Below are positions 18,920 to 37,500 of a stretch of 64,000 nt of DNA, piece after piece. The position numbers and the translations under genes were made by a program. A model generated the notes under the pieces. It had not been told where the DNA came from. It saw nothing but the letters and a program-made list of their open reading frames with translations, and searched no databases. Each line of letters opens with the position of its first letter. Position 1 is the first letter of the stretch. Origin of the DNA: Candidatus Latescibacterota bacterium (GTDB taxonomy: Bacteria > Latescibacterota > UBA2968); assembly GCA_965204745.1 (NCBI GenBank), contig OZ242010.1, forward strand, positions 1,568,001-1,632,000, in the 5' to 3' direction.

Positions 18920-19120
18920 TCAGCCTGTCGATCCAAAGTCGGCGGCGAAGATGAAGCAATCGGCAGAGTCAATTTGACCATCGCCATTGAGATCGCACCG
19001 GGGGTCATATCGCTCCTGGCCGGGCCGCGAGCCGAACTTGCTGGCAAAGGTCAAGAAGTCGGCGAAATTCGCATTGCCATCGCCATTTTCATCTGTGGCG
19101 GTCAGGGAACAGGCTTTCAT
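18920..19120 (-). pseudogene. Detached EF-hand/dockerin-like domain (small ORF or relic C-terminus)
   Basis: DENGDGNANFADFLTFASKFG...DLNGDGQIDSADCFIFAADFG; no signal peptide; ATGA overlap with the adhesin stop. Confidence 0.6.
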
Positions 19121-22100
19121 TGGAAGTGGGAGTCGGGATAGAGGCTTCGAATGTAGGGTTCAATGGCTTGAGCGGTCGTGCGCGTAGCAGTTGGCTCGAT
19201 GACGTTCCCTCTGACGAGGGCCTCGTTCCGGAAGAAGAGGACGTATCGAATGATCAGGATTATATCCGAGAACAGCCTCACATCGCCATCGCCATCCACA
19301 TCGAGAATGTTCTGACCGACCAAAGTGTCGAGGTAGGGTTCAATTTCTTGAGCGGTCTTGCGCGTGGCAGTTGGCTCGATGACGTTCCCTCTGAGGAGGG
19401 CCTCTTCCCGGAAGAAGAGGACGTATCGAATGACCAGGATTATATCCGAGAACAATCTCACCCGGCCATCGCCATCCACATCCAAGTTGGCACTCGGTGT
19501 TTCGTCATCGGTCAGGGTCAGGGTCACGGGCGAAGGATCGGTGATGCCTTGGGCGTTGTTTGCGGTTGCAGACACCCTGACCATCTTCTCGTCTGCCTGG
19601 TCGTTGTTGTCCTCTGCGGTGATCGTCACGGTGCCCGTGCTCGTTGTGGTCGTCGCCGCGATGATCAGCGTGTCTGCACTCGATAGCGTGAAGTCGCTCG
19701 CAGTCGCAGGGGACACAGGCGTAGCAGAGACCGTGATCGTCGTGATCGCGCTCGATGGGTGCGATAGGGTCGCCGTGATCGTGGAAACCTCGCCGTTTTC
19801 CGAGATGGACGAGGGCATCAGCACCAACGTCACGGTCGGCGCATCTTCATCGTCGGTCGTCGTCACTGGAACATCCTCGTCCGAAAGGGTGTTGTAGTTG
19901 GCATCGCCGCTTGACGAGGCGAGTCGCACCGTCCAGGTGACGTTCCCGTCGTCGATGATGTCGTCTTGCCCGGTCACGGTCACGGTTTGTGCCGTGTTAT
20001 AGCCTGACGTCGTGAAGGTCAGCATCGCAGGCTCAACCCGCCCCTCGCTCGGGTCTTGGCTCGTCACCGAAATCGTCACCGCCGCCGTGGGTTGCGTCAG
20101 CAGGGCCACCGTGAAGGTCGCCGAGGCACCGGCCTCTGTCGCCTGCCCGGTCAGCGCGCTGATGTCCAAGCCGAAATCGTTATCGCGGTTGACCATGTAC
20201 ACGCTGATCGCGGTGAGCGCGTCGTAGTTGGTGTCCTGCGTATCCGTCTGGTTCACCGAAAGGGTGACCGTATAGTTCTGGTTGCCATCGACGTTGTTGG
20301 CGGGGGCATCGTCCTGTCCGGTCACGGTCACGGTTTGCGCCGTGCTCCATGTTGTCGATGAGAAGGTCAGCACCGAGGGCGATACAGTGCCTTCCGTCGT
20401 GTCTGAACTGACCACCGAGAGGGCCACGTTCCCGGTTGGCTCGGAGGCGAGCGTGACCGTGAAGGTCTCTGCCCTGCCCGACTCTGTCGTGTGGAGCCTG
20501 ACCGTCGTCGTGGTCATCGCCGACACCTCAATCGCCGCCTCGTCGTCATCGGTGATCGTCAGCGACGTAGCCTGCACGTTGCCCGCGCCGTGGTCGTTCT
20601 CCACAGCGGCGGTCTGCACCATCACCGCGTTGTCTGATGCGTCTATGTCGTTGTCCACGGCGGTGAGTGCCACCGTGTCCGTCGCGTTCGCCGTGCTCCC
20701 GGCCGCGATGGTGATCGTCGAATCCGACCCCACCGTGTAGGCATTCGCCACCGGGCGTACCGTGATCGTTGTCGCCGCGCTCGATGGGTGTGTCAGCGTC
20801 GCGCTCACCGTGCTCACGCCGCCGGCCTCCGAGATGGACGCGGGCGACAGCATTAGTGTCACGTCCGGCGCGGCGTCATCGTCTGTGATTGTCAAAGCCG
20901 TGCCGGTCACACTGCCTGCGCCTTGGGCGTTGTTCGCCACAACGGACACGGTCACGTCGCGATTAGGCGCGTCTTGGGTGTTGTTCACCGCTGTAATGAC
21001 CACGGTATCCGTCGCGTTCGCCGTGCTCCCAGCCGCGATGGTGATCGTCGAATCCATCCCCACCGTGTAAGCACCGGTCACAGGGCGCACTGTGATCGTC
21101 GTCGCCGCGCTCGACGCATGCGACAGCGTCGCCGTGATCGTCGAAACACCGCCGGTCTCTGCAATCGACGCGGGCGACAGCGTCAGTGCCACATCCGGCG
21201 CGGCCTCATCGTCTGTGATCGTCAGGATCACGGCAGACGATAGCGACGCCCCATTGCCACCTGCCACCGTTGCAGACACGGTCACGCGCTTGTCCGGCGC
21301 ATCGGTCGTGTCGTTCACCGAGGTGATCGTCACGGCGCCCGTGCTCGTCGTCACATTCGCCGCGAAGGTCAGCGTGGTCGTGGTCGATAGCGTAAAATCG
21401 CCCGCAACCGCAGGCGACACCTCGGTCGCTGAAACCGTGACCGTCGTCGCCACGGTTGCAACGCGATCTAGCGTCGCCGTGATCGTGGAAATCTGGGCAT
21501 TCTCCGTAATTGACGCAGGAGTCAAAACCAACGTCACCTGCGCCACTTCGTCATCGATAATCGTCAGCGTCGCATCAGTGACCGATCCCGTGCCTATGCT
21601 GTTGCCCGCCGTGCTCGACACGGTCACCGTCTTGTTCCCCGAAGATATGCTGTTGTCCACCGTCCTGATCGTCACGGTGCCCGTGCTCATCGTTTGCCCC
21701 GCCGCGACGGTCAGCGTGGCCGGCGTACTCAGCATGTAGTCGCCCGGAACCGCAGGCGACACAGCCGACGCTGAAACCGTGATCGTCGTCGCCGCGCTCG
21801 ACGTGTGAGACAGGGTCGCGGTCACCGTCGAAATCGCGCCGTTCTCTGAAATCGACGCAGGAGACAAAACCATCGTCACGTCCGGCGCAACGTCGTCGTC
21901 CGTCAGCGTCAAAGCCGCACCGGTCACACTGCCCGCGCCTTGGGTGTTGCTCATCACACCTAGCACGGTCACGTCGCGATTAGGCGCGTCTTGGGTATTG
22001 TTCACCGCTGTGATGACCACCGTGTCCGACGCGTTAATCGTGTCCCCGGCCGCGATGGTGATCGTCGTATCCGACCCCACCGTGTAAGCACCCGCCACCG

Positions 22101-25100
22101 GGCGCACCGTGATCGTCGTCGCCGCGCTCGATGGACGCGATAGCGACGCCGTGACCGTCGAAACCGCGCCGTTCTCCGAAATCGACGCCGGTGACGCCGC
22201 CAACGTCGCTGTCGGTGCAGGGTCGTCGTCCTCCAGCGTCAAAGTCGCACCAGTTACACTGCCCGCGACTTGGGCGTTGCCCGCCACACCGGACACGGTC
22301 ACGTTGCGATTAGGCTCGTCTCGGGTGTTGTTCACCGCTGTGATGACCACCGTGTCCGACGCGTTCGCAGTGCTCCCGGCCGCGATGGTGATCGTCGAAT
22401 CCGCCGCCACCGTGTAAGCACCCGCCACCGGGCGCACCGTGATCGTCGTCGCCGCGCTCAACGGGTGTGCCAGCGTCGCGGTCACAGTGCTCATCCCGCC
22501 GTTTTCCGAGATCGACGAGGGCATCAGGGTCAACGTCACTCTCGCGGGTTGAAGCTGAAATTGCGCGGTGGTGTCCATGCCGGCATACTTCAAGGCCGGA
22601 TACTGATCCATCGCGCCAAAGGTCCACGGATCATCGTTGCCGGGTTGTCCGTCGAGGTTGGCGTTCCAGTTGTAGTAGGTGTCGTTGGCGGTGGCACCGT
22701 AGGTAGTAGGGCTTTGGAGCTCGCTGGTCGTCTTGCCCGCCGCGCCGCTACCGCCGAAGCTCGTTGTGCGCCCGCTGGTTGTGGTGTCCCAGTAGCTATC
22801 GGTAACCGTGCCCGTGCCGGCATTCGACTCGCCCAACAGCCCGCCGATAGATGTCATCGACCCGCTGGAGAGGCTGACCGCGCCGGTGGAGTAGGAGTTT
22901 GTTATGGAGCCGGTGGTCGCTTTTGAGCCTACCAGCCCACCGAGGTTCTGAGTCGCGCTGACGGATGCGAGGGAGTAGCTTGTGGAAATGGAGCCTCCGG
23001 TCCAGCCGACCAGACCGCCGACGACATTGTCGCCCGTCATGCGACCGGTGGTGTAGCAGGCGACGATTTCGCCGCGATTGGCGCCGACCAGAATGCCACT
23101 AAAGTCGTCTGCCGTAACATCGGCGTCGGTTACGCCCAGCGACTCGATGCGGGAGTTGGTGCCGGTGCCGCCGAACAGTGCTTGGTAGCTAACGGTGTTG
23201 CGGCTGATGAACAGGTTTTGGACGGTGTAGCCGTTGCCTTTGAAATCGCCTGTGTATCGAAACGCTGGGCTGGCGTCGGAGCCGATGGGCATCCAGCCTT
23301 GGCCGCTATTCCAGTAGGTGGTGTCTGCTTGGGTGATTGCGCCGTCGTTGTTCTCGTCAAAATCCAAGTTGTTGAGCAGTTCGTAGCCAGTGCAACCGCT
23401 GGAAGGGCAACCCTTTCCGACTGAGGCGTTGGGAAAGACGGCGTTGTAGGCGGTCGTATCGCTGGTCGAGGCACTGGCGTCTATGAAACCATTGCCATCC
23501 AAATCCCAGCGCATGGCATGCAGTTGCGCCAAGGTCGAGACCTCAAGGAGGCCATCGCTATCCGTGTCATAATGCACGGGTTGGGCAGCGTACTGCACCG
23601 TGGTGTCCATGTCGGCAAACTTCAAGACCGGATACTGCTTTGTCGTGCCAAAGGTCCAGGGATCATCATCGTTGGCCCCCGAAGCATCTATGGTCAGATC
23701 GTCCCAAGCGGCATAGATATCACGCGCAGACGTGACCGATTGTAAGTCGGCAGTCAACTTGCCCTCCGGCGCAACAGTATCGCCATCGTCGGCAATGCCG
23801 CTTTCTTGCGTGTCCCAATAGCTATCGGTCACTGTGCCAGCCGAACTGCCCACCAAACCGCCTTTCGTACCGGTACCCGTGACCCGGCCTATCGCGTAAC
23901 TGGCGGTCACGCCACCGCTACTCGCGATTTGACCCACCAAACCGCCACCCACCGCGCTGCTGTGTCCCACGAACACCGAGCCCAGCGCGTAAGACGCCAC
24001 CACCTCGGTCTGATCGGTCAGCCAACCCACCAAACCGCCGGCCATCCCGCCACTCGTCACATGTGCAGGAACCCGCACAGAGACGAGCGCATAGCTGCTC
24101 ACAATGCGGTTGGTGCCCGAAGTGCGATAAGACCGACCAACCAAACCACCCACACCCCACTTCGCCCCCTCAACGCGACCCGTCACATAACACGACGAGA
24201 TGGTGCTTCCACCACCTTGATTACCGGCCAGACCACCCACGCGGTCAGCGCCGGTCACATTCACATTCAACAACCCCAACCCCGAAACATCGCCATCAAC
24301 CGCATGGAACAATCCTACATTATGCCGAGACCGGTTGATGAACAGGTGGGAGATCGTCTTGTTGTTGCCTTTGAACGTGCCGCCGTAAGGCCCCACAGGG
24401 TTCCAGCCGGCGCCGCTATTCCAGTAGGTGGTGTCTGCTTGGGTGATTGCGCCGTCGTTGTTCTCGTCAAAATCCAAATTGTTGAGCAGTTCGTAGCCGA
24501 TGCAGGTACCGGACGGGCAACCCATCCGGCCGGTATTGCTGGTGTTGCGGAGGGGAAAGGCGGCGCCATAATCGGCGTGGGTAGCGTCGCCATTGCCGTT
24601 GAGGTCGTGGCGAATGGCGTTGAGTTGCGCCAAGGTGGTGATGTCAATCAGGCGGTCATTGTCCATGTCGTAGTCGGTGGCCGGTCGGCCCTGGGCAACC
24701 AGGGAATGACCGCCGTACTTCAGCACCGGATACTGCGATGACGTTCCGAAGTCCCAGGGGTCGTCGTTGCCGGTCTGTCCGTCAATGTTGATGTTCCAGG
24801 TGGCGTAGATGCCGGTGTAGCCGGTGGGAGTTTGGAGAGTGCTGGTGGTCTGACCCGTGCCGCCTGCGCTGGTGGTCTGACCGCTGGTTTCGGTGTCCCA
24901 GTAGCTACTGACCACGCTAGCTGCGCCAAAACCCTGTGCTGTGAAGAAACTTGCTACTAAACCGCCGATGGTTGATGCTGTTCCGCTGGACAGGCTGACC
25001 CGGCCGATAGAGTAGGAGTTTGTTATATTTCTTCCTTGGCCTAACAGACCGCCGACTTGGCTTGTTCCGCTGACAGAAGCAATCGAGTAACTGGTCGAGA

Positions 25101-25764
25101 AAGTCCGATTAGTCCAGCCGACTAATCCACCAACATAATTGGTGCCTTGTACCCTGCCGGTGGTGTAACAGGCGACAACGTCGCCGCTGGTACCGGCTAG
25201 AATGCCGCTGAATTCCCTTCCCGTGACATTGGCGTTGGTCACGCCCAGGGATTCGATTTGACTACTTGAGCCGCCGAACAGCCCAATGTAATCATCTCCG
25301 CTACGGTTGATGAACAGGTTGTTGATGGTATAGCCGTTGCCCTTGAAAGGGGCACTGTAACTCTGTGTACCATCGGGATCGCCCACGGGTCTCCAACCTG
25401 CACCGCTGTTCCAGTAGTTGCCGCTGTGGTCATTGGCGTCCACGTCGCCGTCGCCGTCGCTGTCGAAGTCCAGGTTGTTCATCAGTTCGTAGCCGTTACA
25501 GCCGGGGGACGGGCAACCCATACCCGAGGCGGCGTTGGGGAAGGCGGTGTTGTAAAGTGTCCATTCGCCGGCTGTCGCGTAGCCTTGCACGGCATTGCCG
25601 TCGAGGTCGTAGTTTATGGCTTGGAGTTGTGCCAAAGTGGTGATGTCAATCAGGCGGTCGTTGTCCATGTCGTAGTCAACGGTGGTTTGGGCAAAAGCCT
25701 GCCCCGATGCCACCAGCATGCCCAACGCGACCAGGGCCAACAAGTGAGCGTAGCGGGACATCAT
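19117..25764 (-). CDS. Giant secreted repeat protein/adhesin (3 GLUG-type beta-helix modules, ~9 Ig/Calx-beta-like repeats, duplicated dockerin-like C-terminus)
   Basis: Signal peptide ending AFA-Q; three DYD.D.D.L.....LAQL modules with VGGLVG repeats; repeated VTLxLxPASISENGGVSTxTATL...LTxTDDD units; terminal DVDGDG..RLFSDIIL x2. Confidence 0.85.
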   Translation of the reverse strand: MMSRYAHLLALVALGMLVASGQAFAQTTVDYDMDNDRLIDITTLAQLQAINYDLDGNAVQGYATAGEWTLYNTAFPNAASGMGCPSPGCNGYELMNNLDFDSDGDGDVDANDHSGNYWNSGAGWRPVGDPDGTQSYSAPFKGNGYTINNLFINRSGDDYIGLFGGSSSQIESLGVTNANVTGREFSGILAGTSGDVVACYTTGRVQGTNYVGGLVGWTNRTFSTSYSIASVSGTSQVGGLLGQGRNITNSYSIGRVSLSSGTASTIGGLVASFFTAQGFGAASVVSSYWDTETSGQTTSAGGTGQTTSTLQTPTGYTGIYATWNINIDGQTGNDDPWDFGTSSQYPVLKYGGHSLVAQGRPATDYDMDNDRLIDITTLAQLNAIRHDLNGNGDATHADYGAAFPLRNTSNTGRMGCPSGTCIGYELLNNLDFDENNDGAITQADTTYWNSGAGWNPVGPYGGTFKGNNKTISHLFINRSRHNVGLFHAVDGDVSGLGLLNVNVTGADRVGGLAGNQGGGSTISSCYVTGRVEGAKWGVGGLVGRSYRTSGTNRIVSSYALVSVRVPAHVTSGGMAGGLVGWLTDQTEVVASYALGSVFVGHSSAVGGGLVGQIASSGGVTASYAIGRVTGTGTKGGLVGSSAGTVTDSYWDTQESGIADDGDTVAPEGKLTADLQSVTSARDIYAAWDDLTIDASGANDDDPWTFGTTKQYPVLKFADMDTTVQYAAQPVHYDTDSDGLLEVSTLAQLHAMRWDLDGNGFIDASASTSDTTAYNAVFPNASVGKGCPSSGCTGYELLNNLDFDENNDGAITQADTTYWNSGQGWMPIGSDASPAFRYTGDFKGNGYTVQNLFISRNTVSYQALFGGTGTNSRIESLGVTDADVTADDFSGILVGANRGEIVACYTTGRMTGDNVVGGLVGWTGGSISTSYSLASVSATQNLGGLVGSKATTGSITNSYSTGAVSLSSGSMTSIGGLLGESNAGTGTVTDSYWDTTTSGRTTSFGGSGAAGKTTSELQSPTTYGATANDTYYNWNANLDGQPGNDDPWTFGAMDQYPALKYAGMDTTAQFQLQPARVTLTLMPSSISENGGMSTVTATLAHPLSAATTITVRPVAGAYTVAADSTITIAAGSTANASDTVVITAVNNTRDEPNRNVTVSGVAGNAQVAGSVTGATLTLEDDDPAPTATLAASPASISENGAVSTVTASLSRPSSAATTITVRPVAGAYTVGSDTTITIAAGDTINASDTVVITAVNNTQDAPNRDVTVLGVMSNTQGAGSVTGAALTLTDDDVAPDVTMVLSPASISENGAISTVTATLSHTSSAATTITVSASAVSPAVPGDYMLSTPATLTVAAGQTMSTGTVTIRTVDNSISSGNKTVTVSSTAGNSIGTGSVTDATLTIIDDEVAQVTLVLTPASITENAQISTITATLDRVATVATTVTVSATEVSPAVAGDFTLSTTTTLTFAANVTTSTGAVTITSVNDTTDAPDKRVTVSATVAGGNGASLSSAVILTITDDEAAPDVALTLSPASIAETGGVSTITATLSHASSAATTITVRPVTGAYTVGMDSTITIAAGSTANATDTVVITAVNNTQDAPNRDVTVSVVANNAQGAGSVTGTALTITDDDAAPDVTLMLSPASISEAGGVSTVSATLTHPSSAATTITVRPVANAYTVGSDSTITIAAGSTANATDTVALTAVDNDIDASDNAVMVQTAAVENDHGAGNVQATSLTITDDDEAAIEVSAMTTTTVRLHTTESGRAETFTVTLASEPTGNVALSVVSSDTTEGTVSPSVLTFSSTTWSTAQTVTVTGQDDAPANNVDGNQNYTVTLSVNQTDTQDTNYDALTAISVYMVNRDNDFGLDISALTGQATEAGASATFTVALLTQPTAAVTISVTSQDPSEGRVEPAMLTFTTSGYNTAQTVTVTGQDDIIDDGNVTWTVRLASSSGDANYNTLSDEDVPVTTTDDEDAPTVTLVLMPSSISENGEVSTITATLSHPSSAITTITVSATPVSPATASDFTLSSADTLIIAATTTTSTGTVTITAEDNNDQADEKMVRVSATANNAQGITDPSPVTLTLTDDETPSANLDVDGDGRVRLFSDIILVIRYVLFFREEALLRGNVIEPTATRKTAQEIEPYLDTLVGQNILDVDGDGDVRLFSDIILIIRYVLFFRNEALVRGNVIEPTATRTTAQAIEPYIRSLYPDSHFQ

Positions 25765-26780: not shown

Positions 26781-27095
26781 TCACGCCTCCGCATCCAATG
26801 CGCGCTGAAATTCACCCAGATCAGCGACTTGCACTGCCGAGCGATGCAACTGCTTGAGGCGTTGCAAATCTTCGATGGTCCGAAGGCGACCTGCGACCTG
26901 ATCGGCCACGGCAGGATCAAAGCGAATCTCCAACACGTCGAGAATCGCGTCCATGGTATGTTCCCTACCCCCTCGCTCGATGCCCTGCTCGATGCCCTGC
27001 TCGATGCCCTGCTCAATGCCCTGCTCAATAAACTGTTCCTTGAAGTGCTCCTTGAGGTATTGGGCAAACGATGATTCACGCATAATCGCGTCCAT
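26781..27095 (-). CDS. Putative internal in-frame small Rpn product (RpnS-like, 104 aa)
   Basis: Perfect AGGAGG SD (27101-27106) 5 nt before the internal ATG of MDAIMRESS. Confidence 0.6.
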   Translation of the reverse strand: MDAIMRESSFAQYLKEHFKEQFIEQGIEQGIEQGIEQGIERGGREHTMDAILDVLEIRFDPAVADQVAGRLRTIEDLQRLKQLHRSAVQVADLGEFQRALDAEA

Positions 27096-27734
27096 AAAAC
27101 CCTCCTGAGAAAGAATTCGGTTGATGGTGGTCGGCTCATAAGCCAAACCACTCATGACCGCCAAGCCACCCAAAAAGTCGATCTTGCTTGAATGATCCAA
27201 GGGCATCACATCGGTCTTGCGGATACACTGACGCAACCAAGTCTCTGAATCCACCCCCACAGGAGGTTTCATCAACGGCGCGAAAGGAAGCAAGCCCGCC
27301 TGACCCCCTTCAAGAATGCTTTGCCCATCCATCTCACTCAGCCGAATCACCTTGTATTCCACATAGATGAAATGGCCGGGAAGTTCTTGCGTGTAGCATC
27401 CTGGATCGTGCCGCCCGGCATTGCGCCGCAAGTAGATCACACAGGAATAGACCGGCAGGCCATACTGCGCGATAATGTAACCCATGTAATTGATCATGCG
27501 GCGATTCATCGGGGTGCCCGTGCTGTCGGTGGTTTGAAATTCCGTGTGAACCAAGGCATCCTGACCGTCAATCCGCACGCGAATCAGATTATCGCTTCGG
27601 CGCATTTCAACGGTGGGTTGTTCGGTTTCGAGCAGACCGTCAACTTCCACGTCAACTCGTCCGAGAATGAATTGGACAAGGTCGTCTGGATAGTTTTGAA
27701 TCAGGTGTTTGGAAATTGTATCGTACTCGGCCAT
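26781..27734 (-). CDS. Rpn family recombination-promoting nuclease / PD-(D/E)XK 'putative transposase'
   Basis: YDTISKHLI, RRSDNLIRV, VHTEFQT, MNRRMINY, LLPFAPLM, C-terminal (EQGI)n repeats. Confidence 0.88.
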   Translation of the reverse strand: MAEYDTISKHLIQNYPDDLVQFILGRVDVEVDGLLETEQPTVEMRRSDNLIRVRIDGQDALVHTEFQTTDSTGTPMNRRMINYMGYIIAQYGLPVYSCVIYLRRNAGRHDPGCYTQELPGHFIYVEYKVIRLSEMDGQSILEGGQAGLLPFAPLMKPPVGVDSETWLRQCIRKTDVMPLDHSSKIDFLGGLAVMSGLAYEPTTINRILSQEGFMDAIMRESSFAQYLKEHFKEQFIEQGIEQGIEQGIEQGIERGGREHTMDAILDVLEIRFDPAVADQVAGRLRTIEDLQRLKQLHRSAVQVADLGEFQRALDAEA

Positions 27735-27781
27735 GTGAATCCCCTTCAATAAAGTCATCCCCATTCGATTTCAAAGCGAAT

Positions 27782-27882: not shown

Positions 27883-28022
27883 TGATGAGGCGGGGGATGC
27901 GAAGGAGATAGCGGAGTGGGAACGATGAAGCGGCGGTAGGGCGGTGGGTGGATCTCACCTCTTACTTCTTGCCTCTTACTTGGGGGTAGGGCTTGCGGTG
28001 GGGCGGCGAGGATGCGTACGCC

Positions 28023-28310
28023 CTATTCTTCTGCCTTGGCTTTGACGACGCGCTCGAGTTTGTGGATGTCGCGCCAGAGTACGCGAATCCTGCCTTGCGT
28101 CTCTGTGGTGACGACGATTTCTCCTGCGGTTGACCGCAATGCGATGCCTTGAAATGTCGCGCCGTCTTTGGTCTCTATACGCACGGAATCGCCAGTGGTG
28201 ATTTGTTCGGGGGAATGCACCACTTCGTAAAAAAAATAAGAAGAGGGCGAGGTGGTCTCGCAACCACACAGACACAGGCTCAAGACCGCGAATGCGAGCA
28301 ATTGGTTCAT
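28023..28310 (-). CDS. Small lipoprotein
   Basis: MNQLLAFAVLSLCLCGC lipobox; ATGA overlap with the upstream gene. Confidence 0.7.
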   Translation of the reverse strand: MNQLLAFAVLSLCLCGCETTSPSSYFFYEVVHSPEQITTGDSVRIETKDGATFQGIALRSTAGEIVVTTETQGRIRVLWRDIHKLERVVKAKAEE

Positions 28311-29194
28311 GGCATCCTCACCGGTTCTGCGGAAAAAACCCGCCACTGCTCCACAGGTCGAAATTTTTGTTTGAACTGACGCAGGCCCGAGAGGCCCAAG
28401 TCGCCGGCGTCATTGACGCGGCGATACGCAGACAACGCGCCATAGACCCGCCAGCGCAAAAAATACGAGAGGTCGGGCAAATCGGGATTGGCTTTGGCGA
28501 CGAAAAAGTGCGCCAGATCGGGTTGCATAGCGCCCGTTAGTGCGAACGCTTGAACCCGGCCATCGAGTTCCACGCACCATCCCCGCAACATCTCTTTTGA
28601 CCAATGGTGAAACTGATCGAGGGCGGCTTGCGTATATCCCCAGTCCAACAAAAAGGGGTGCCGCCTGCCTTGCCGTCGCCGCCAGTATTTTAGGAGGGCG
28701 ATGCAATGCGGTATATCGCGGGCATTGAGGGCGCGAAAGCGCGATAGATGGTTGCGTTCAAACCGGCGCACGCGCTTGCGAACATCTCGAAACGGGCGGC
28801 CTTTGACCGAAGCGATTTGAGACGGGTCGTAAATATATTCGGCGTCTTTGTCGCGCAGTGCAAAGCATTGGGGGTCCAACAACTGGGCGTCGCGGGCATC
28901 TAGCCACAAAATTCTCGGCAGGCGGCCCCGTTGCTGCGCTGCCAATTTTTGTACGACCCGATTCAACCCATCGGCATCAAAGGGAATGGGCGGCGCGAGC
29001 AAGTCGGTCCCGGTTGGACGTTGCACGAACAACCACGCACATCCCGCCATTTCACCGACGCGCACGATCCGGTTGGGCGCGAGGCTAAACGCACAGAGAA
29101 AGGGCGGGAAATAGCACCACGCCCGTTTGTCGGCGTGCAAAAACACATCGCGCAAGTACCCGCCGTGCGCTGGCTCAATAGGTTGTCCGATCAC
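28307..29194 (-). CDS. Stand-alone DUF2156 / phosphatidylglycerol lysyltransferase C-terminal domain protein
   Basis: EYIYD...VKGRPFRDVRKRVRRF, FVAKAN, VNDAGDLGLSGLRQFKQKFRP. Confidence 0.75.
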   Translation of the reverse strand: MIGQPIEPAHGGYLRDVFLHADKRAWCYFPPFLCAFSLAPNRIVRVGEMAGCAWLFVQRPTGTDLLAPPIPFDADGLNRVVQKLAAQQRGRLPRILWLDARDAQLLDPQCFALRDKDAEYIYDPSQIASVKGRPFRDVRKRVRRFERNHLSRFRALNARDIPHCIALLKYWRRRQGRRHPFLLDWGYTQAALDQFHHWSKEMLRGWCVELDGRVQAFALTGAMQPDLAHFFVAKANPDLPDLSYFLRWRVYGALSAYRRVNDAGDLGLSGLRQFKQKFRPVEQWRVFSAEPVRMP

Positions 29195-30239
29195 TTTGTC
29201 GCTGCCTTTTGCAATCCGCTGTGTACAGGGCGCCGTGGTACGGGCCGGTCACGAGCGGCTGTGGCTTCCCGGTGGCGATGAGGTGGATCATCTGACTGAC
29301 CCCGCCCAACACTTGCGCGCCCACGTATTCGTTAAATTCCGGTACGATTTCCACGGGCGCGAAGCCCATCTGGATCAACGAGGCCATGGCCTGGGCGGTT
29401 TCAGCGGGCGAGCGGCGGCCAAAGCTGACAAACCCCTGTTTGCCCACTTCGGGCGCGAGTGCGGTGGCCCCGCGCGAGACGAACAATGCCAGACCGGGCA
29501 AGGTATAGGGCGGGTCCGTAACGAACCCGTCCATTTGCCCGCACAAGGTCGCTGGCAGGTCTTCGCGCAAATCGCGTGCGATCACCGTGATGGGCAACCC
29601 CTCGCGTTTCTCGACCGCATTGAGAAACGCGATGAGCCGCTGGTCGCATTCTAGCACCACCACTTGCCCGAGTGCGATTTCCAAATGTTGCGCGAGCAAG
29701 CCCACGCCCACCGAGGTCAGGTCGTCGTCGCCGAGGATGAGCAGGTTTCGGCCTTCGAGGGCGTCGTGTTCGTACAAGTACACGGCGCGTTTGAGGACCG
29801 TTTCGGGCGTTGCGTGGGACTGATCCAGTTTGACGTTGACCTTGGGGCGGCTCGCGGCGATCTCTGCGAGGCGTTCGCGCACGTCGTCCAAAATTGCGGG
29901 CGTGGGGGGCGCGCTTGGCCGCGCAAAGCGTTTGCGGCACGAAATCCCCAGTGCGGATTGGACGACGCCGAGGCCCTCGTCGCTGAGGGAGACCCCGCCG
30001 CGGCGCGTCAAAATCCCTCGTTTTTCCAGTTCGCCCCGCACGGCAGCGACCACGGGAACGGGCAGGCCCACCTGCTGCGCGATGTTGCGAATGGGAATTT
30101 GTTGGGCCACGAAGACCGTTCGCAAAATGCGGCGCACGCCCTCGGCGCCTTCGGCCAAGCGCGCGTGGGTTGCCACGTCGCGCAGCAACGCGCTGCTGTC
30201 GATAGAAGCAGTTGGCTTACGCCGTTTCGGAATCCGCAT
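29175..30239 (-). CDS. BpsA-like N4-bis(aminopropyl)spermidine synthase family (DUF43) with N-terminal HTH-like extension
   Basis: LDQSHATPETVLKRA, LEGRNLLILGDDDLTSV (GDDD), VLECDQRLI, TDPPYTLPG..LFVSRG, FNEY. Confidence 0.8.
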   Translation of the reverse strand: MRIPKRRKPTASIDSSALLRDVATHARLAEGAEGVRRILRTVFVAQQIPIRNIAQQVGLPVPVVAAVRGELEKRGILTRRGGVSLSDEGLGVVQSALGISCRKRFARPSAPPTPAILDDVRERLAEIAASRPKVNVKLDQSHATPETVLKRAVYLYEHDALEGRNLLILGDDDLTSVGVGLLAQHLEIALGQVVVLECDQRLIAFLNAVEKREGLPITVIARDLREDLPATLCGQMDGFVTDPPYTLPGLALFVSRGATALAPEVGKQGFVSFGRRSPAETAQAMASLIQMGFAPVEIVPEFNEYVGAQVLGGVSQMIHLIATGKPQPLVTGPYHGALYTADCKRQRQSDRTTY

Positions 30240-31311
30240 GATGGCCGGCCTCCTCTTCTTCGGGTTCTTCTTCATCGTTCCATTCGAGCAGATTTGCATT
30301 GTCTTTGCGATGCCGCAACGCCACGTACATCAAACACAATCCCGAAGCGTAAGTCGCTTGCACATAAGATATGACGATCCCGGTCACCAAGACGAGCATC
30401 ACCCCCAAAATACCCCCACTCCAGACCTCTGCGCCCGACGGCGTGCCCAGCGCGGGCAAACTGGCGAGCCACAGATCCCATTTTGCGGGTTGGAACAAGA
30501 GATAGTGCGATGCCTCGGAAAAGAGATGGGTCAATTTGACGCCCATAAACAAACCGCACGCCCAAATGATGAGGCCAATCGCGGCCATGGTCAACGCGCC
30601 CATCAGCATCAGGCCAACCCACGCGGAAACAACTGTCCACACCAAGTACAAAACCAATCGCCACGGTTGCGACCACGTCAGGGAAAAGGACTGGATCACG
30701 ACCTCTAAGGTGTCATCCTCCACCGTGCCCACCATCGCTGGGGACAGGATGGACGCGACGACGAAGACCACGCCTGTGAACACGGTCAACAAGGCCGCGA
30801 AGAAGATGGGGATGAAGCACAGCGCGAAGGCCAGTTCCCCCAACGCGGGAATCCACCCGGCGATCCATCCGATGACCATGCCGCCAATGACGACCATGGC
30901 AAAGAGGAAAAGCAGGGTTAGCGGGCCAAACAGCACGGCTTTCCAGTTCGCTTTTGCGAATTGCCATGCATCGCTGCCCGAATAAAAGTCGTCTCCGCGC
31001 AGGTGCTGAAAAGTGATTTTGCACATCATGCTGGTCGTGACAAAGACCACGCCCAAGGCGAACAGCAGGCCCGCGATGTGCAACACTGCGCCCAACAGGT
31101 CAAAGTCGCCGGCTGTCGCGCCGGGAAACAAGCCGTAGCGTTGCCACACCGCGCCGATAGATGCGCCCGTGCGGAGATGCGCGATGAGCAGCAAGACAGC
31201 GTACCCCGCCCAAGCCGCGATCAGTCCCAGCAGTCCAATCCAGATTTTCTTTCCAGACCACCCCAGTCGCACGCAGCGAAACAGGTCTCGAATGTCGAAA
31301 TGTAGAGTCAT
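30217..31311 (-). CDS. Polytopic membrane hypothetical protein
   Basis: ~6-7 hydrophobic helices and an acidic tail; SD aaggag before ATG 31311; overlaps the BpsA-like start. Confidence 0.75.
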   Translation of the reverse strand: MTLHFDIRDLFRCVRLGWSGKKIWIGLLGLIAAWAGYAVLLLIAHLRTGASIGAVWQRYGLFPGATAGDFDLLGAVLHIAGLLFALGVVFVTTSMMCKITFQHLRGDDFYSGSDAWQFAKANWKAVLFGPLTLLFLFAMVVIGGMVIGWIAGWIPALGELAFALCFIPIFFAALLTVFTGVVFVVASILSPAMVGTVEDDTLEVVIQSFSLTWSQPWRLVLYLVWTVVSAWVGLMLMGALTMAAIGLIIWACGLFMGVKLTHLFSEASHYLLFQPAKWDLWLASLPALGTPSGAEVWSGGILGVMLVLVTGIVISYVQATYASGLCLMYVALRHRKDNANLLEWNDEEEPEEEEAGHHADSETA

Positions 31312-31326
31312 GAGATGCTCCTTTTT

Positions 31327-31368
31327 AGGTAAGAGGTGAGACGTAAGAGGTAAGAGGTAAGAGGTAAG
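31327..31368. repeat. (AGGTAAG)n array, 6 units, left of the IS110
   Basis: aggtaag aggtgag acgtaag aggtaag aggtaag aggtaag. Confidence 0.9.
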
Positions 31369-31384
31369 ATACTCTCTTAAAAGG

Positions 31385-32392
31385 TCAAGGGGTTTTCGGG
31401 GTGATTCGATAGAATTTTTCGCCCTCAAAATCTTGGTCATGGCGCAACATGCCCCAGATCGAATGGAGCAACTTTCGCATCACCGCAACGATAGCCTGCA
31501 AAGGTTTCTTGCCGCGGGCGATGAGTTGGTCATAGAAGGCTTTGACATGGCCTTCGTGTCTGATGGCCACCCAGGCAGGCATATAGAGGGCATGGCGGAG
31601 GTACTTATTCCCGGTTTTCGAGATGCGTCTTTGTGGATTGGCGGTTCCGGATTGTTTGGGTTTGGGATCCAGGCCTGCATGTGCGACCCACTGGGGCGGT
31701 TGCATCTCCTCTGGCAAAAGGGTCAACTCGGCCAAGAGCCGCAAGGCACTCGTTTGCGCGATGCCAGGCGTCGAGCAGAGGCGTTGGTAGGCACGCTTGA
31801 GGGGCTCATCGTGCAAAACGAGATCGAGGGCTTGGCTTTCCAAGTATGCAATCCGGCGTTTGAAGTGTCGAATATTCACCTGAATATCGCGTGCGATGAG
31901 ACGTGTGCTGCGGATGTGGTAGCTCTGCGCGTGGTTGCGGCTCTGTTCGCGGATGATCTCCTGCTTGAGTTGGTCAATGCGTCTGGTGAGGGCTTGCAGT
32001 TGAAGCCGTTGCTCGCTCGGCGCTTGCCAAGGCACAAAAGGCATGCGCTCGGCATAGTCGAGGATCAACAACGCATCCTTCGCATCCGTCTTCGCCCGTT
32101 GCATGCAGGCTTGGGCGTACTTGCTCATCGCTTTGGGATTGACGACCATGACCTTTGTGTGGCGATGCCGATGCAAGGCCAAGGCCACCCCCAAACTGTA
32201 AAGCCCGGTCGCTTCGAGGCACACAGAGACCATGTGCCCGCCCTTCGTGAGCCACTTCAGCAACCGCTTATGCGCTTGGGGATCATTGGCAAAGGTCGCT
32301 TGCATGACAGCTTGTCCGGGTCTGGACAGGGCAACGGACAACGTGCGGGCACTGACATCAATGCCGGCAAAAGCGGGGTGAGATTTCGACAT
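31385..32392 (-). CDS. IS110 transposase/recombinase (DEDD RuvC-like + Tnp domain)
   Basis: GIDVS, CLEATG, KTDAKDA (DEDD); AGLDPKPKQSG (catalytic Ser); SKTGNKYLRHALYMPA; SD caggagg. Confidence 0.95.
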   Translation of the reverse strand: MSKSHPAFAGIDVSARTLSVALSRPGQAVMQATFANDPQAHKRLLKWLTKGGHMVSVCLEATGLYSLGVALALHRHRHTKVMVVNPKAMSKYAQACMQRAKTDAKDALLILDYAERMPFVPWQAPSEQRLQLQALTRRIDQLKQEIIREQSRNHAQSYHIRSTRLIARDIQVNIRHFKRRIAYLESQALDLVLHDEPLKRAYQRLCSTPGIAQTSALRLLAELTLLPEEMQPPQWVAHAGLDPKPKQSGTANPQRRISKTGNKYLRHALYMPAWVAIRHEGHVKAFYDQLIARGKKPLQAIVAVMRKLLHSIWGMLRHDQDFEGEKFYRITPKTP

Positions 32393-32466
32393 GGGGGCCT
32401 CCTGTGATGAGGGGGTTGTAAGGGATCTGGTGCGCGCTCGGGGTCGCGTCCCGACCATTGACGCCA

Positions 32467-32645
32467 AGTCTACCGGTCTTGTATATGCAGCCTCAAGGGG
32501 CTTAGATACTCTTCGGCATAGACCCGGCGGTCGGGGGGCCTATCTTACCTACAAGGTCATCGCCTTCAAGAGGGGCCGGCCTTCCCCGAGCCGGGCATCA
32601 AGATGGCTTATCTCGATACGAGGGCGCAACTCCTAATTAACCCTT
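32467..32645 (-). ncRNA. Putative bridge RNA (boundaries approximate)
   Basis: 5' hairpin (32595-32619); target loop with LTG GGCCCCUCU (32569-32577) and RTG AGGUAAG (32544-32550); donor loop with LDG AGAGUAUCU (32504-32512) and RDG AUACAAG (32478-32484), closed by a gucua/uagac stem. Confidence 0.8.
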
Positions 32646-32661
32646 ACTTCCAAGATACAAG

Positions 32662-32759
32662 AGGTAAGAGGTAAGAGGTAAGAGGTAAGAGGTAAGAGGT
32701 AAGAGGTAAGAGGCAAGAGGCAAGAGGTAAGAGGTAAGAGGTAAGAGGTAAGAGGTAAG
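32662..32759. repeat. (AGGTAAG)14 array, right of the IS110
   Basis: 98 nt, 14 units, two of them AGGCAAG. Confidence 0.95.
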
Positions 32760-32901
32760 AGGGCCACCCAACCCGACCACCAAGCGGTTAGCAGTTCGTT
32801 ACCCGATCCTATCCCCATTACCCGGACAGGCCGTGTTCAATCCTTTGAAACCGCGTTCATCCGCGCTTCGGTTTCTTGGTTGTCCTTACACCGCGCACGC
32901 A

Positions 32902-33195: not shown

Positions 33196-34578
33196 ATGGC
33201 CAAACCACTTGAAACCACCGCAGAGCCTACCCCTCGCAAAGTCGATTTTTCCCTGACCCGGAAAATCCTCTCCATGACCTTCCCTGTCGCGCTGGGCGGG
33301 CAAATCGAAACGGCTGTGGGGATGGCGCAACTCTTCTTGATCGGCATGCTCGGCCCCGTGGCCCTGTCCGCCGTGGGGATTGCACAGGCATTTACGCGCG
33401 TCTTGTTCACCGCGATGATGTCCATTTCGCGGGGCGCGCTCACAATGGTCGCACGGGCCATTGGCGCGGATTCCATGCGCGAGGCCAGTGCCGCGGCAAA
33501 GCAGGCGTTCACCCTGCTGTTCGCGTTCAGCATCGCGTTTGGCGTGGGTAGCCTGATTTTGTCGCCCTTCCTCATTCCCGCGCTGACCTCTGACCCGGAA
33601 GTGGCGGCTTTGGGCACGCCCTACTTGCAGGTCTTCTTTCTCGGCGTCCCCTTCATGACCCTGAACCGCGCGATAGCGAGTTGTTTGCAAGGCGCGGGCG
33701 ATACGCGCACCCCGTTCTTCTTAAGCCTCGTCAGCAGCAGCATTCAAATCGCGATGGCGTACGTCTTGATTTTCGGCTATTGGGGATTTCCAGAATTAGG
33801 CGTCGTGGGCGCGGCTATAGGTGGGTTTATGGGACGCTGTGCCGCGACCCTGATTGGATTTGCCTGTCTTTACAGCGGGCGGTTTGCCCTCGCGCTTCTG
33901 CCGGATACGTCCTACCGCTTCAACTGGGAGGTGGCGCGGCGCATCCTCAAAATCGGCGTGCCTTCCGGGCTTCAGGGCATTTTACGCAATGGCTCCGGGT
34001 TGGTGTACATCCGCCTCATCGCCATGTCCGCGCTTTCGACCACGGCGGTCGCCGCGTACTCGATAGGGAATCAGGTGGAACACATCTTGCGCCGAACCGG
34101 GCTGGCTTTTGGCACGGTTGCCACGGCCTTTGTGGGGCAGCATCTCGGCGCGAAAGACCCGGCAGGCGCGGAGCGTCACGGGTGGACCATCCTCGTCATC
34201 TCCGTCGCGACAAACCTCATTCTCTCCCTGCCCGCCGCGCTGTTTGCGGGATTTTTCATGTCCATCTTCACAGACGCGCACGCGGTCATCAGCACAGGCG
34301 TGGTCTATCTCTACGCGATGGTCATTGCCGAACCCTTTTTGTGCGCGGCCAATACCAGCAGCGGCAGCCTCAGAGGCGCGGGCGATACCATGCCTCCGAT
34401 GTACTACACCCTGATCGCCCAATGGATCGTACGCCTGCCCATCGCCTATATTTTGGGCTTCACCCTCGGCTTTGACATCCACGGCATTTGGGCCGCGCTC
34501 ATCATCTACAGCACCGTGCAAGGCACGCTCACCATCCGCAAATTCGCGCAGGGCCACTGGAAAACGCGAGAGATTTAG
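33196..34578 (+). CDS. MATE family efflux transporter
   Basis: LQGAGDTRTP, ELGVVGAAI, ILKIGVPS, VGQHLGA, LRGAGDT; 12 TM segments. Confidence 0.92.
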   Translation: MAKPLETTAEPTPRKVDFSLTRKILSMTFPVALGGQIETAVGMAQLFLIGMLGPVALSAVGIAQAFTRVLFTAMMSISRGALTMVARAIGADSMREASAAAKQAFTLLFAFSIAFGVGSLILSPFLIPALTSDPEVAALGTPYLQVFFLGVPFMTLNRAIASCLQGAGDTRTPFFLSLVSSSIQIAMAYVLIFGYWGFPELGVVGAAIGGFMGRCAATLIGFACLYSGRFALALLPDTSYRFNWEVARRILKIGVPSGLQGILRNGSGLVYIRLIAMSALSTTAVAAYSIGNQVEHILRRTGLAFGTVATAFVGQHLGAKDPAGAERHGWTILVISVATNLILSLPAALFAGFFMSIFTDAHAVISTGVVYLYAMVIAEPFLCAANTSSGSLRGAGDTMPPMYYTLIAQWIVRLPIAYILGFTLGFDIHGIWAALIIYSTVQGTLTIRKFAQGHWKTREI

Positions 34579-37500
34579 CCGCCTGCCAACACCTCCTTCA
34601 AAAACCGCCCGGTGTGCGAGGCGGTGACAGCGGCCACCTCCTCGGGCGTGCCGCAGGCGATCAGGTCGCCGCCCGCATCGCCGCCTTCCGGCCCCAAATC
34701 GATCACCCAATCCGCGGTCTTGATCACATCCAAATTGTGCTCGATCACAATCGCTGTATTGCCCGCATCCACGAGGCGATTGAGCACGTCGAGCAACTTT
34801 TGAATATCGGCGACGTGCAAGCCCGTGGTCGGTTCGTCCAAAATATAAACCGTCTGCCCGGTATTCGGGCGGGCCAATTCGCGGGCGAGTTTCACGCGCT
34901 GTGCCTCGCCGCCCGAAAGCGTGGTCGACGCCTGCCCCATTTCGAGATAGCCCAGGCCCACGTCAAACAGCGTTTGCAAGGACCGCGCAATGCCGGGCAC
35001 GGTAGCGAAATGCGCGAGGGCCTCTGCCACGTTCATCGCCAGCACCTCCGCGATAGACGCGCCCTTGTACGTTATGTCGAGCACGTCTCGGTTGTACCGC
35101 TTTCCGCCGCAAAGCTCGCACTGCACCCACACATCCGGCAAGAAGTGCATCTCGATACAGCGCGCGCCCAACCCCGCGCACGCATCGCACCGCCCGCGCT
35201 TGTGGTTAAAACTAAAATGCCCGGCCAAAAACCCGCGCACTTGGGCATTGGGCAGGCTGGCGTATAGCTGGCGGATCTTGTCGAACACCTTCACATACGT
35301 CGCCGGATTGCTGCGCGGCGAATGCCCTATCGGGGTCTGGTCGATGTTGATCACCTTATCCACCAGTTCCAAGCCCATCGCATCGTCGTGTTCCCCCCAC
35401 GCATTTCGCGCCTTGTTCACGCGGGCCGCGAGCGCGCCGAACAACACGTCATTGACGAGCGAACTCTTGCCCGAGCCGGAAACCCCGGTCACGCACGTCA
35501 ACGTGCCCAAGGGGAATGCCACATCCACATTTTTCAAATTGTTGTGCCGTGCGCCCCGGATGCACAACGCGCCATTCCCCGCCTCGCGCCGCGCTTCGGG
35601 CACTGCGATCTGCAACGCGCCGGACAGATAGCGCGCCGTCGATGACCCATTGTCGCCGTGCAAGGTGTGCGGAGCGCCCGTAGCCACAACGCGCCCGCCT
35701 TCACCCCCCGCGCCCGGGCCAAAATCCAAAATGTGATCCGCTTTGGTCAAGGTCTCGCGGTCGTGTTCCACAACGAGCAGGGAATTGCCCAAATCGCGCA
35801 GCCGCGCCAACGCGCCCAACAACCGCCGGTTGTCGCGCTGATGCAGGCCAATGGTCGGCTCGTCGAGCACGTAGAGCACCCCGGTCAGCCCAGAGCCGAT
35901 CTGACTCGCCAAGCGAATGCGCTGCGCCTCACCCCCGGACAGGGTGGGGGCGCGCCGTCCCAAATTCAAATAGCCCAGGCCCACCTCGTGGAGAAAGCGC
36001 GCCCGGCTCTGAATCTCGGACAACACCTCGCCCGCGGCCTCGCGCGCCTGCCCGGTCAGTGCCATCGCGTCGAACCACGCGCGCACATCCGCTATCGGCA
36101 TCGCCGCCACCTCGGGCATCGTCTTTCCAAAAAGCCGAACGGCCGCGCTCTCTGCCCGCAACCGCACGCCCTTGCAGGTCGGGCACGGCACATCTTGGAT
36201 AAATTCGCCCATCAGCCGGCGAAACCGCGGCGCCTGGCGCACCAGCGCGTCAAGGGTTGGAAACAACCCCTTAAACTGGAACGCGATCCGGTCGGGGCCT
36301 TTCAACCATCGCTCGCCCAACCCGTACAAAATCGCGTGTTGCCCCTGTTGTGAGATGCGCGCAAACGGCGTGTCGAGCGCGAAGCCCGCGGCCTCGCCCA
36401 CCGCAGACAACATGCGACCTAGCGGCGTGGTCGCCCCCACCTCGCCCCATGCGAGCACCGCGCCCTCGGCCAATGACTTGTGGACATCCGGTATCAGGGT
36501 GTGGAGTCCCATGCCGCGTTGCGTGCCGAGCCCCTCGCACGCCAAACACCACCCTTCGTAACTGTTGAACGACATCCGCTGTGGGATGATCGCCTCGAAA
36601 CTCCGGCCGCATGACGGGCACGACAAGTGCTGGCTGAACCGCGTCTCCTCCTCGTCATCCGGCGACGCGACGATCAAAATCCCCCCGGAAATATCCAATG
36701 CGCGCTCTGCGGACTCGGCGATGCGCTTGCGATTCTTCTCTTCCGCGACCACGCGATCCACCAAAATCTCGACCCGATGCGACTGCCGGTAATCGATCTC
36801 CGGCGGCGTTGCCAACTCAAAAACCCTGCCATCGAGCCTGCCGCGCAAATACCCATCCCGCCGAAAGCGGTTGAGCAAGCTGGCGTAATCCTCCCCCTTG
36901 CCGAGGTCCACCGGCGCGAGCAGGTATAAGCGTCGCCCCAGTTTCAGCACGCGATCCACGATCTCGGCCACGGCTTGGCTGCCGGCCTTTGCGTCGCACT
37001 CCGGGCAATACACATCGCCCAACAGCGCGTACAATGCCCGCAGATAATCGTACACCTCGGTCACCGTGCCCACGGTCGAGCGCGGGTTCTTGCTCGCGGC
37101 CTTTTGCTCAATCGCTATCGCGGGCGACAAGCCCAACACGCGATCCACCTTGGGCTTGGGCATTCGCCCCAAAAATTGCCGCGCATAAGCCGAGAGGGAT
37201 TCCACGTATCGCCTTTGCCCCTCGGCGTAAATCGTATCGAGTGCCAGCGAGGATTTGCCCGAACCGGACACCCCGGAAATCACGGTCATTTTCTCGCGCG
37301 GAATGGACACATCCACGTCTTGCAAATTGTTCTCCCGCGCGCCCCAGACGTCAATCGTGCGAACCCGTCCGTGCGCCCGCATCCGGTCCGCCTCGTCCGC
37401 GACCACCGGCGTTCGCGCCAACACCTCGCCCAGGGCGCGCCCGGTGTGGGACTCGGGGGACTCGGCCAATTGTTCCGGCGTGCCCACGCCCAGCACTCGC

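Follow-up and report, generated by a model that had tools for sequence, protein, structure and literature searches.

What does a bacterium make with an operon that sets a BpsA-family aminopropyltransferase-like enzyme beside a stand-alone DUF2156 protein? The question is raised by a locus in the window analysed here, a whole stretch of 64,000 nucleotides (G000:C1:1568001-1632000) from a single-contig genome of 5.48 Mb (G000), the nearest public relatives of which are Latescibacterota metagenome-assembled genomes (MAGs). Four genes make up the operon, encoding in order a polytopic membrane protein, the BpsA-like enzyme, the DUF2156 protein and a small predicted lipoprotein (Table 1). We find that the two enzymes are a real, conserved and so far undescribed pairing from two known families. 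Our reading, in which we place about as much belief as doubt, is that the module most likely makes a tRNA-dependently aminoacylated, aminopropylated polyamine-like amine, which in this lineage would be handed over to the envelope; it is drawn from sequence comparison and structural models.

The four genes are translationally coupled through overlapping frames. The membrane gene and the BpsA-like gene share 23 nt (TAA at 30219-30217, ATG at 30239), the BpsA-like and DUF2156 genes share 20 nt (TGA at 29177-29175, GTG start at 29194), and a 4-nt ATGA at 28310-28307 is common to the DUF2156 TGA and the lipoprotein ATG. Read directly, these junctions bear out the four consecutively overlapping open reading frames (ORFs) of an earlier sequence-only annotation of this DNA, hereafter the original prediction. 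A GAGGAGG about 10 nt 5' of the BpsA-like ATG supports that start, and AAGGAG lies 7 nt 5' of the membrane-gene ATG at 31311, a start that could be fixed because the N-terminus is kept in all 17 aligned homologues. No NCBIfam model matches any of the four proteins, and neither the membrane protein nor the lipoprotein falls into a Pfam family. Rfam at its gathering threshold gave no match between 26000 and 33500, and promoter and terminator patterns between 27700 and 32700 (4 against 1.7 and 7 against 5.5 in shuffled sequence) yielded nothing usable.

Is the pairing conserved? Scanning 185,579 species genomes with a degenerate pattern returned 255 BpsA-like relatives, and all ORFs of the best 80 of these 255 loci were searched with the four window proteins using phmmer. 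A DUF2156 gene lies directly 3' of the BpsA-like gene, or is fused to it, in 40 of the best 80 loci. Thirty-five of these are Latescibacterota/Gemmatimonadota-labelled and have the membrane gene upstream as well, four come from Chloroflexota/Dehalococcoidia and have no membrane gene, and one is a fusion (L050). The 40 loci with no DUF2156 neighbour belong to Bathyarchaeota, Bacillota and actinomycetes.

The same picture emerges within the phylum, for which 151 genomes were evenly drawn. A DUF2156 orthologue (E<=1e-10) is present in 56, and coordinate comparison places a BpsA-like gene upstream of it, on the same contig and strand, in 56 of 56, counts that show conservation and are not a statistic, the genomes being kin and not independent. 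The gap within the pair ranges from an overlap to about 830 nt; gaps of ~470 and ~660 nt are occupied by an AdoMet_dc gene in three loci inspected. A close BpsA-like gene (E<1e-40) is present and the DUF2156 orthologue absent in two genomes: G053, where the gene sits at a contig end, and G003. The large same-class family f3 has the orthologue in none of its 64 genomes.

Gene fusions carry most weight. L050 encodes one 702-aa protein that runs from BpsA_C through a zinc-ribbon to LPG_synthase_C. An earlier search for longer homologues had found one fused protein only (P0121, of the L050 / P0121 type); the L050 fusion, used as query against 1.84 billion representatives in an exhaustive search, added a second full-length cluster, P0122 (713 aa, 47% identity), both domains of which are confirmed by Pfam. 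The pairing is far beyond chance. The original prediction had staked itself on a survey of co-occurrence and synteny, and both proved strongly conserved, fusions included. Its statement that no characterised system has this pairing also held: our search of the literature on BpsA/PF01861 and on DUF2156/PF09924/aminoacyl-phosphatidylglycerol synthase (aaPGS), to which subscription journals were outside scope, found no description of it.

As a separate observation, three of the four Chloroflexota loci (L041, L051, L081) have a gene of the PF01370 NAD-dependent epimerase/dehydratase family directly 5' of the pair; the fourth is cut by a contig end.

What would the BpsA-like enzyme contribute? It matches BpsA_C (PF01861) with E=1.2e-42 (146.3 bits against a gathering cut-off of 27), as the original prediction had assigned it, and is encoded by a single-copy gene. 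Homologues carry the source annotation 'bis-aminopropyl spermidine synthase family protein'. With BpsA itself (EC 2.5.1.128; T. kodakarensis 5xnc, Thermus thermophilus 6j27; P. furiosus homologue 2qm3) it shares the Pfam family and the two-domain layout: HMMER aligns query residues 22-307 with 2qm3 (E=4e-29), and the alignment with the T. kodakarensis enzyme (Tk-BpsA, 5xnc; E=6e-24) starts at residue 59. Because both alignments run through it, the winged-helix-like N-terminal segment, described in the original prediction as an extension, is the normal N-domain of BpsA; its Pfam match to HTH_24 is weak (E=0.0011).

The GDDD motif noted in the original prediction (G170, D171, D172, D173) is invariant in all 15 diverse homologues aligned. 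In Tk-BpsA this motif is Gly157-Asp160, with Asp159 and Asp160 holding the aminopropyl group of decarboxylated S-adenosylmethionine (dcSAM), and the acceptor is activated by Asp225, Glu259, Tyr290 and Tyr316, according to the available text of PMC12979288. We located their counterparts with the HMMER alignment to 5xnc, the chain numbering of which is native plus 20. Asp225 corresponds to D242 and Tyr290 to Y305, both invariant in the BpsA-like homologues, and Tyr316 lies beyond the aligned stretch. The BpsA-like enzyme has TDPPYT where BpsA has TDPPET.

A further likeness to BpsA lies in the genomic ties of BpsA-like relatives to S-adenosylmethionine (SAM) decarboxylase. Genome G000 has one AdoMet_dc gene (E=1.3e-41), ~117 kb from the operon, together with four Spermine_synth-type matches; PF01536, the profile for the eukaryote-type SAM decarboxylase, gave no match and is uninformative, as the control matched in no genome either. 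In relatives the tie is closer. AdoMet_dc stands between the BpsA-like and DUF2156 genes in three of the four distant phylum loci inspected (L088, L089, L090), and it adjoins the BpsA-like gene in 11 of the 40 DUF2156-less loci (8 of 9 from Bathyarchaeota, 2 from Clostridium and 1 from an actinomycete). Among 22 long relatives scanned, nine are BpsA-like/AdoMet_dc fusions. The L050 fusion gene is itself flanked by AdoMet_dc and by a PNP_UDP_1 phosphorylase that may be methylthioadenosine phosphorylase-like. Given this adjacency and fusion, the BpsA-like enzyme is not a plain methyltransferase, the outcome that the original prediction had named against itself, and the pattern argues for the use of dcSAM in aminopropyl transfer.

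The second enzyme matches LPG_synthase_C (PF09924) over profile positions 39-292 of 298 (E=8.2e-20, 71.5 bits against a cut-off of 27.5), again as originally assigned, and is the only DUF2156/MprF copy in the genome. With its start fixed by an alignment of 20 orthologues it is 295 aa long, predicted soluble and free of any fused membrane or flippase domain, the last point having been made in the original prediction too. Its AlphaFold2 (AF2) model is of high quality (predicted local distance difference test score, pLDDT, 90.2; predicted template modelling score, pTM, 0.88) and points to the tandem GCN5-related N-acetyltransferase (GNAT) fold of aminoacyl-tRNA-dependent transferases. The top Foldseek match is 2hqy (template modelling score, TM, 0.83), followed by the catalytic domains of MprF/aaPGS (9goe, 4v34, 4v36, 5vrv, 6lv0, 7duw; TM 0.56-0.68, E=4e-12 to 1e-9) and, further down, by FemX (TM ~0.57) and the aminoacyl-tRNA-dependent peptide synthases Sba18/Sbb17 (TM ~0.55-0.56). 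Tandem GNATs that depend on coenzyme A (CoA), namely the clavulanate tandem GNAT, Eis2 and VipF, rank below the aminoacyl-tRNA enzymes.

The model also has a helix, residues 133-148, that contains eight Arg/Lys, with R139 and K140 invariant in the 20 orthologues. A positively charged helix is a common binder of the tRNA acceptor stem in transferases of this kind, according to the available text of PMC6103681, and we assume that the helix in the model is equivalent to the tRNA-binding helix of aaPGS. A co-fold prediction of the BpsA-like and DUF2156 proteins, with alignments of both, scored 0.00, which counts neither way on binding.

Proteins P0175, P0249 and P0256 (~1260-1285 aa) each have three stretches that match the DUF2156 portion of the fusion query. 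In P0175, LPG_synthase_C repeats occur together with a RimK-like ATP-grasp domain, another uncharacterised combination of DUF2156 with an amide-forming enzyme.

What accompanies the BpsA-like gene elsewhere? Of the 40 DUF2156-less loci, 9 have a GNAT acetyltransferase beside the BpsA-like enzyme or fused to it; such a fusion is also seen in 5 of the 22 long relatives, and ATP-grasp ligases occur at a few loci (L069, L071, L077, L091). The DUF2156 gene holds the same downstream position as these acyl-transfer partners. Most simply, the enzymes of this clade would produce an aminopropylated amine for the partner to N-acylate, the acyl group here being a tRNA-derived amino acid.

A particular arrangement recurs in six Bacillota loci (L052, L059, L061, L072, L074, L075), in which the BpsA-like gene is followed by a gene for a ~150-aa GNAT acetyltransferase and then by one for a ~345-aa protein. 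The latter has a weak haloacid dehalogenase (HAD)-hydrolase match in L052 and no family in the other five. This three-gene order looks like a counterpart of the BpsA-like/DUF2156 module.

How might the two enzymes of the window act together? We propose that the operon core is a two-enzyme module working on one small amine-type metabolite. The BpsA-family enzyme would move the aminopropyl group of dcSAM, supplied by the distant SAM decarboxylase, onto an amine and release methylthioadenosine. The stand-alone DUF2156 enzyme would take an amino acid from charged tRNA and attach it to that molecule, the two steps being possible in either order, and the product would be an aminoacylated, aminopropylated polyamine-like cation. 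The data show the genes and their overlaps, family and fold membership, co-occurrence, fusions and the SAM decarboxylase link; the identities of donor and acceptor, the order of the two steps and the destination of the product are our inference. The original prediction of an undescribed pathway for aminoacylated or lipid-linked polyamines stands as regards a conserved pairing; the chemistry that it proposed keeps its conditional form.

In this Latescibacterota-type class the pair is set, by overlapping frames, behind the membrane protein and usually before the lipoprotein. As the pair is coupled to these two proteins, its product is probably handed to the cell envelope, or exported through it, by way of the membrane protein; the lipoprotein would act on the outer side of the cytoplasmic membrane. 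In the membrane protein a conserved amphipathic segment at the N-terminus is joined by six to seven long hydrophobic helices, and the C-terminal tail is acidic; 17 aligned sequences show 61% mean column identity, and the AF2 model (pLDDT 78, pTM 0.78) is an all-helical bundle of long helices. Its neighbours in Atlas are unnamed clusters from Fidelibacterota and Planctomycetota. Its family is found in 75 of the 151 phylum genomes, and in 49 of these 75 (families f1, f2 and f4) the gene lies directly 5' of the BpsA-like gene. The 95-aa protein is a predicted lipoprotein: a hydrophobic leader precedes Cys17, invariant in 12 of 12 aligned homologues, and a short beta-rich domain follows. Its gene follows that of the DUF2156 protein in 22 of the 35 related three-gene operons.

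A number of observations weigh against this proposal. In the BpsA-like enzyme, the identity of which with BpsA is ~30% (by eye, from the 5xnc alignment), Ser277 stands at the position of Glu259. Tk-BpsA carries the aminopropyl group on a C-terminal acidic cluster (Glu339, Asp342-Glu345) in a ping-pong mechanism, as far as the available text of PMC12979288 goes. This cluster is absent here; the last 12 residues are net basic, and the family consensus (15-sequence alignment) ends in YTAD followed by K/R-rich residues. With the acidic tail absent and Ser277 in place, mechanism or acceptor would therefore differ from those of BpsA. By sequence, the enzyme is a Pfam family member with an intact donor site, but it lacks one feature that defines the characterised BpsA mechanism. 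Moreover, in G000 the SAM decarboxylase lies outside the operon. The setting, too, differs from that of BpsA: the host belongs to a sponge-associated, mesophile-type MAG lineage and is not a thermophile. The product need not be branched.

The tRNA-dependent step meets objections of its own. By sequence the only solved relative of the DUF2156 protein is 2hqy (E=5e-8 with the single protein, 6e-20 with the 20-sequence profile), which is uncharacterised. That profile of 20 orthologues reached no MprF chain at E<=1, so that the case for tRNA dependence is carried by the fold ranking and one basic helix. The acceptor of VlmA we take to be a hydroxylamine. If the DUF2156 enzyme formed an amide on a polyamine, this type of acceptor would be new to the DUF2156 family, the named characterised members of which acylate hydroxyls, those of phosphatidylglycerol (PG), diacylglycerol (DAG) and ergosterol, in the available text of PMC6103681 and PMC7334510.

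Support for the envelope destination is weak. Foldseek found no match of the membrane-protein model in the PDB at E<=0.001, and Pfam searched at E<=5 with the 17 homologues gave no family in more than 4 of them, none of those a transporter family. The top whole-length matches in VIA-align are yeast PNS1 (9f63; Z 14.0, root-mean-square deviation 9.4, 266 aligned), human CTL1 (7wwb; Z 11.2) and CysZ (3tx3; Z 9.8), a borderline likeness given that Z under ~13 can be chance for helical models; the next rows (Z<=8.4) cover one hairpin only. As a lead only, the membrane protein may be organic-cation-transporter-like. Its gene is unlinked to the BpsA-like gene in 6 of the 75 genomes (five with the pair, and G003 with the BpsA-like gene only), and in 20 of the 75 the family occurs with no DUF2156 orthologue. 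The membrane protein is also absent from the Chloroflexota pairs and from the fused forms. It is thus a lineage-specific partner: the partnership suggested in the original prediction fits the 49 genomes in which the two genes adjoin, but does not extend to these other cases.

Could the same genes serve another chemistry? The alternative that survives best, with a small but real chance of being right, is cationic lipid remodelling. The DUF2156 enzyme would then aminoacylate PG, DAG or a glycolipid, in the manner of MprF, and the BpsA-like enzyme would aminopropylate the head-group amine and so raise its positive charge; the membrane protein would be the flippase or anchor that in MprF is part of the same protein, and the lipoprotein would receive the lipid outside. 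DUF2156 is, after all, the synthase domain of MprF, and the fold of our model matches aaPGS: four entries (4v34, 4v36, 9goe, 7duw) share with it PF09924, the tandem GNAT fold at TM 0.63-0.68 and, if the helices are equivalent as we assume, the conserved basic helix. Characterised DUF2156 acceptors, that of VlmA aside, are lipids in the available text of PMC6103681 and PMC7334510. The genome has no other DUF2156/MprF gene, and the membrane protein and lipoprotein are translationally coupled to the pair here, the membrane gene being adjacent in 49 phylum genomes.

However, neither the Chloroflexota pairs nor the two fusion clusters nor the BpsA/AdoMet_dc/DUF2156 operons have any membrane partner, and in 20 genomes the membrane family is present but the pair is not. 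In neither Pfam nor the fold searches did the membrane protein resemble the membrane domain of MprF. Unlike MprF/aaPGS, the DUF2156 protein lacks a membrane or flippase domain, does not reach an MprF chain by profile and has an aminopropyltransferase as operon partner, and its acceptor is probably not PG. The small soluble GNATs at the DUF2156 position in relatives also fit a soluble amine better than a lipid.

These GNATs lead to a different alternative, CoA-dependent N-acylation, which we think unlikely. Here the DUF2156 protein, its tRNA dependence lost, would acylate a polyamine for storage, detoxification or export. The polyamine N-acetyltransferases SpeG, PaiA and SSAT are single-domain GNATs that acylate polyamine amines with acetyl-CoA as donor, and the ordinary GNATs beside BpsA-like genes in Bacillota and Bathyarchaeota, in the position of the DUF2156 gene, are a parallel to them. 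The frequency of those GNATs (9 of 40 loci, 5 of 22 long relatives) speaks for this alternative, as do the weak Acetyltransf_6 match of P0122 (E=7e-5) and the fact that 2hqy, the closest solved relative, has no known donor. Against it, the aminoacyl-tRNA enzymes stand above the CoA-dependent tandem GNATs in the fold ranking and the basic helix is retained. In addition, every DUF2156 enzyme for which the available text of PMC6103681 and PMC7334510 names a donor uses aminoacyl-tRNA, although no search was aimed at CoA-dependent members.

An improbable variant on tRNA chemistry is that the BpsA-like enzyme does not use a free polyamine and that tRNA serves as a scaffold for a polyamine/amino-acid hybrid, the aminopropyl acceptor being a carrier-bound amino acid: the BpsA-like enzyme would aminopropylate the alpha-amino group of a tRNA-esterified amino acid, and the DUF2156 enzyme would then transfer the N-aminopropyl-aminoacyl group. 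We leave it open because the acidic carrier tail is lost, because relatives P0141 and P0142 have a fused N-terminal phosphopantetheine carrier domain, and because in L092 a BpsA-like relative lies beside genes for a phosphopantetheinyl transferase and a class II aminoacyl-tRNA synthetase.

Finally, that the two enzymes are unrelated neighbours by descent, the BpsA-like one making ordinary branched polyamines, agrees with the annotation of homologues as bis-aminopropyl spermidine synthase family and with the persistence that gene order can show among close relatives with no functional link, but is highly improbable in view of the 56 of 56 adjacency across several families of the phylum, the recurrence of the pair in a second phylum, two divergent gene fusions, a block that survived rearrangements which removed both flanks, and the absence of the BpsA acidic carrier tail.

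For the preferred reading, a tRNA-dependently aminoacylated polyamine-like amine, there is precedent in the reaction type. VlmA, the streptothricin-type enzymes Orf11/Sba18/Sbb17, PacB and FemX are GNAT-fold proteins that pass an amino acid from tRNA to a non-protein acceptor, in the available text of PMC6103681. The structures of Sba18 and Sbb17 have streptothrisamine as ligand according to their entry titles, and it is presumably their amine acceptor. They differ from the DUF2156 protein in that the fold likeness is lower (TM ~0.55), the genes belong to antibiotic clusters and none is paired with an aminopropyltransferase. Closest by both sequence and fold is 2HQY, a structural-genomics entry from Bacteroides thetaiotaomicron that is likewise soluble and ~300 aa long; at 18% identity and with function unknown, it allows no functional transfer.

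What would such a module mean? BpsA makes heat-protective branched polyamines, and DUF2156 enzymes make aminoacyl lipids that protect against cationic peptides. The pairing reported here is found in mesophilic, mostly uncultured phyla (Latescibacterota, Gemmatimonadota and Chloroflexota), and it predicts a new class of compound that combines polyamine-type cations with amino acids of the tRNA pool. If this is true, tRNA-dependent transferases would gain a new acceptor type, the large stand-alone branch of DUF2156 represented by the orphan structure 2HQY would gain a function, and most 'bis-aminopropyl spermidine synthase family' annotations outside thermophiles would probably be wrong in detail. 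The module is compact, consisting of two genes and a SAM decarboxylase. The version in the window is a variant that has no decarboxylase in the operon and that has the membrane protein and the lipoprotein.

Table 1. Features of the window, with positions counted from its first nucleotide.
Feature	Position	Strand	Basis or remark
Polytopic membrane protein, 364 aa	30217..31311	-	first operon gene; ORF and Shine-Dalgarno; no Pfam family
BpsA-family (PF01861) aminopropyltransferase-like enzyme, 354 aa	29175..30239	-	Pfam BpsA_C
Stand-alone DUF2156 / LPG_synthase_C protein, 295 aa	28307..29194	-	Pfam PF09924
Small predicted lipoprotein, 95 aa	28023..28310	-	last operon gene; ORF and conserved Cys
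IS110-family transposase gene	31385-32467 (element ~31330-32664)	-	NF033542, E=5e-63
Heptanucleotide (AGGTAAG-type) tandem arrays	31327-31369, 32659-32762		6 and 15 copies, either side of the IS110 copy
Third heptanucleotide array, inverted	27953-27979		~4 copies; just past the lipoprotein gene, so that the four-gene block is bracketed
327-aa ORF	26781-27764	-	weak Rpn-family nuclease/transposase match, TIGR01784, E=0.007
1895-aa ORF	34575-40262	-	
2215-aa secreted repeat protein	19117-25764	-	

Within the lineage of the window the four genes behave as a unit. Relatives have the order EPSP (5-enolpyruvylshikimate-3-phosphate)-synthase-family gene, CCA-type nucleotidyltransferase gene, ~190-aa gene, membrane gene, BpsA-like gene, DUF2156 gene, lipoprotein gene and PhyH. 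In G000 the four-gene block is intact, while its ancestral flanks now lie at a distance of 346 kb (upstream) and 3.7 Mb (downstream). We considered the CCA-adding-type nucleotidyltransferase as a member of the system and rejected it, its gene being 346 kb from the operon in G000.

Mobile DNA surrounds the block. The IS110-family transposase gene ends 73 nt upstream of the first ATG of the operon, on the same strand; with the insertion sequence (IS) directly upstream, the native promoter region of the operon has been replaced, and transcription may read through from the IS. Copies of this element above 1200 bp number 52 in the genome, most of them more than 94% identical, and one lies just upstream of the ancestral flank of the operon (G000:C1:1942475-1943794). 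The copy beside the operon sits between the two heptanucleotide arrays as if it had inserted into one microsatellite. Perfect heptamer arrays of at least three units number 17 in the genome. We rejected the arrays as ends of IS110, since only 7 of the 17 lie near an IS copy and the copy beside the operon is the only one of the 52 with arrays at both ends. Past the third array lies the 327-aa ORF, probably another mobile-element remnant bounding the block; its EQGI repeat corresponds to a tandem repeat of 12 nt at 26970-27026.

Two large genes elsewhere in the window deserve a line. The 1895-aa ORF looks like a duplicated UvrA fusion, with two complete UvrA proteins one after the other. The 2215-aa secreted protein has many near-identical Ig-like repeats and two dockerin-like repeats at its C-terminus; it is of a kind typical among the large surface proteins of host-associated bacteria. 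Near-identical DNA to 28023-31400 (0.47-0.99 of sampled words) is present in public runs from several studies, among them runs labelled as sponge metagenome (X3-X5, X8, X12) and marine metagenome (X10, X11), which fits a sponge-associated lineage.

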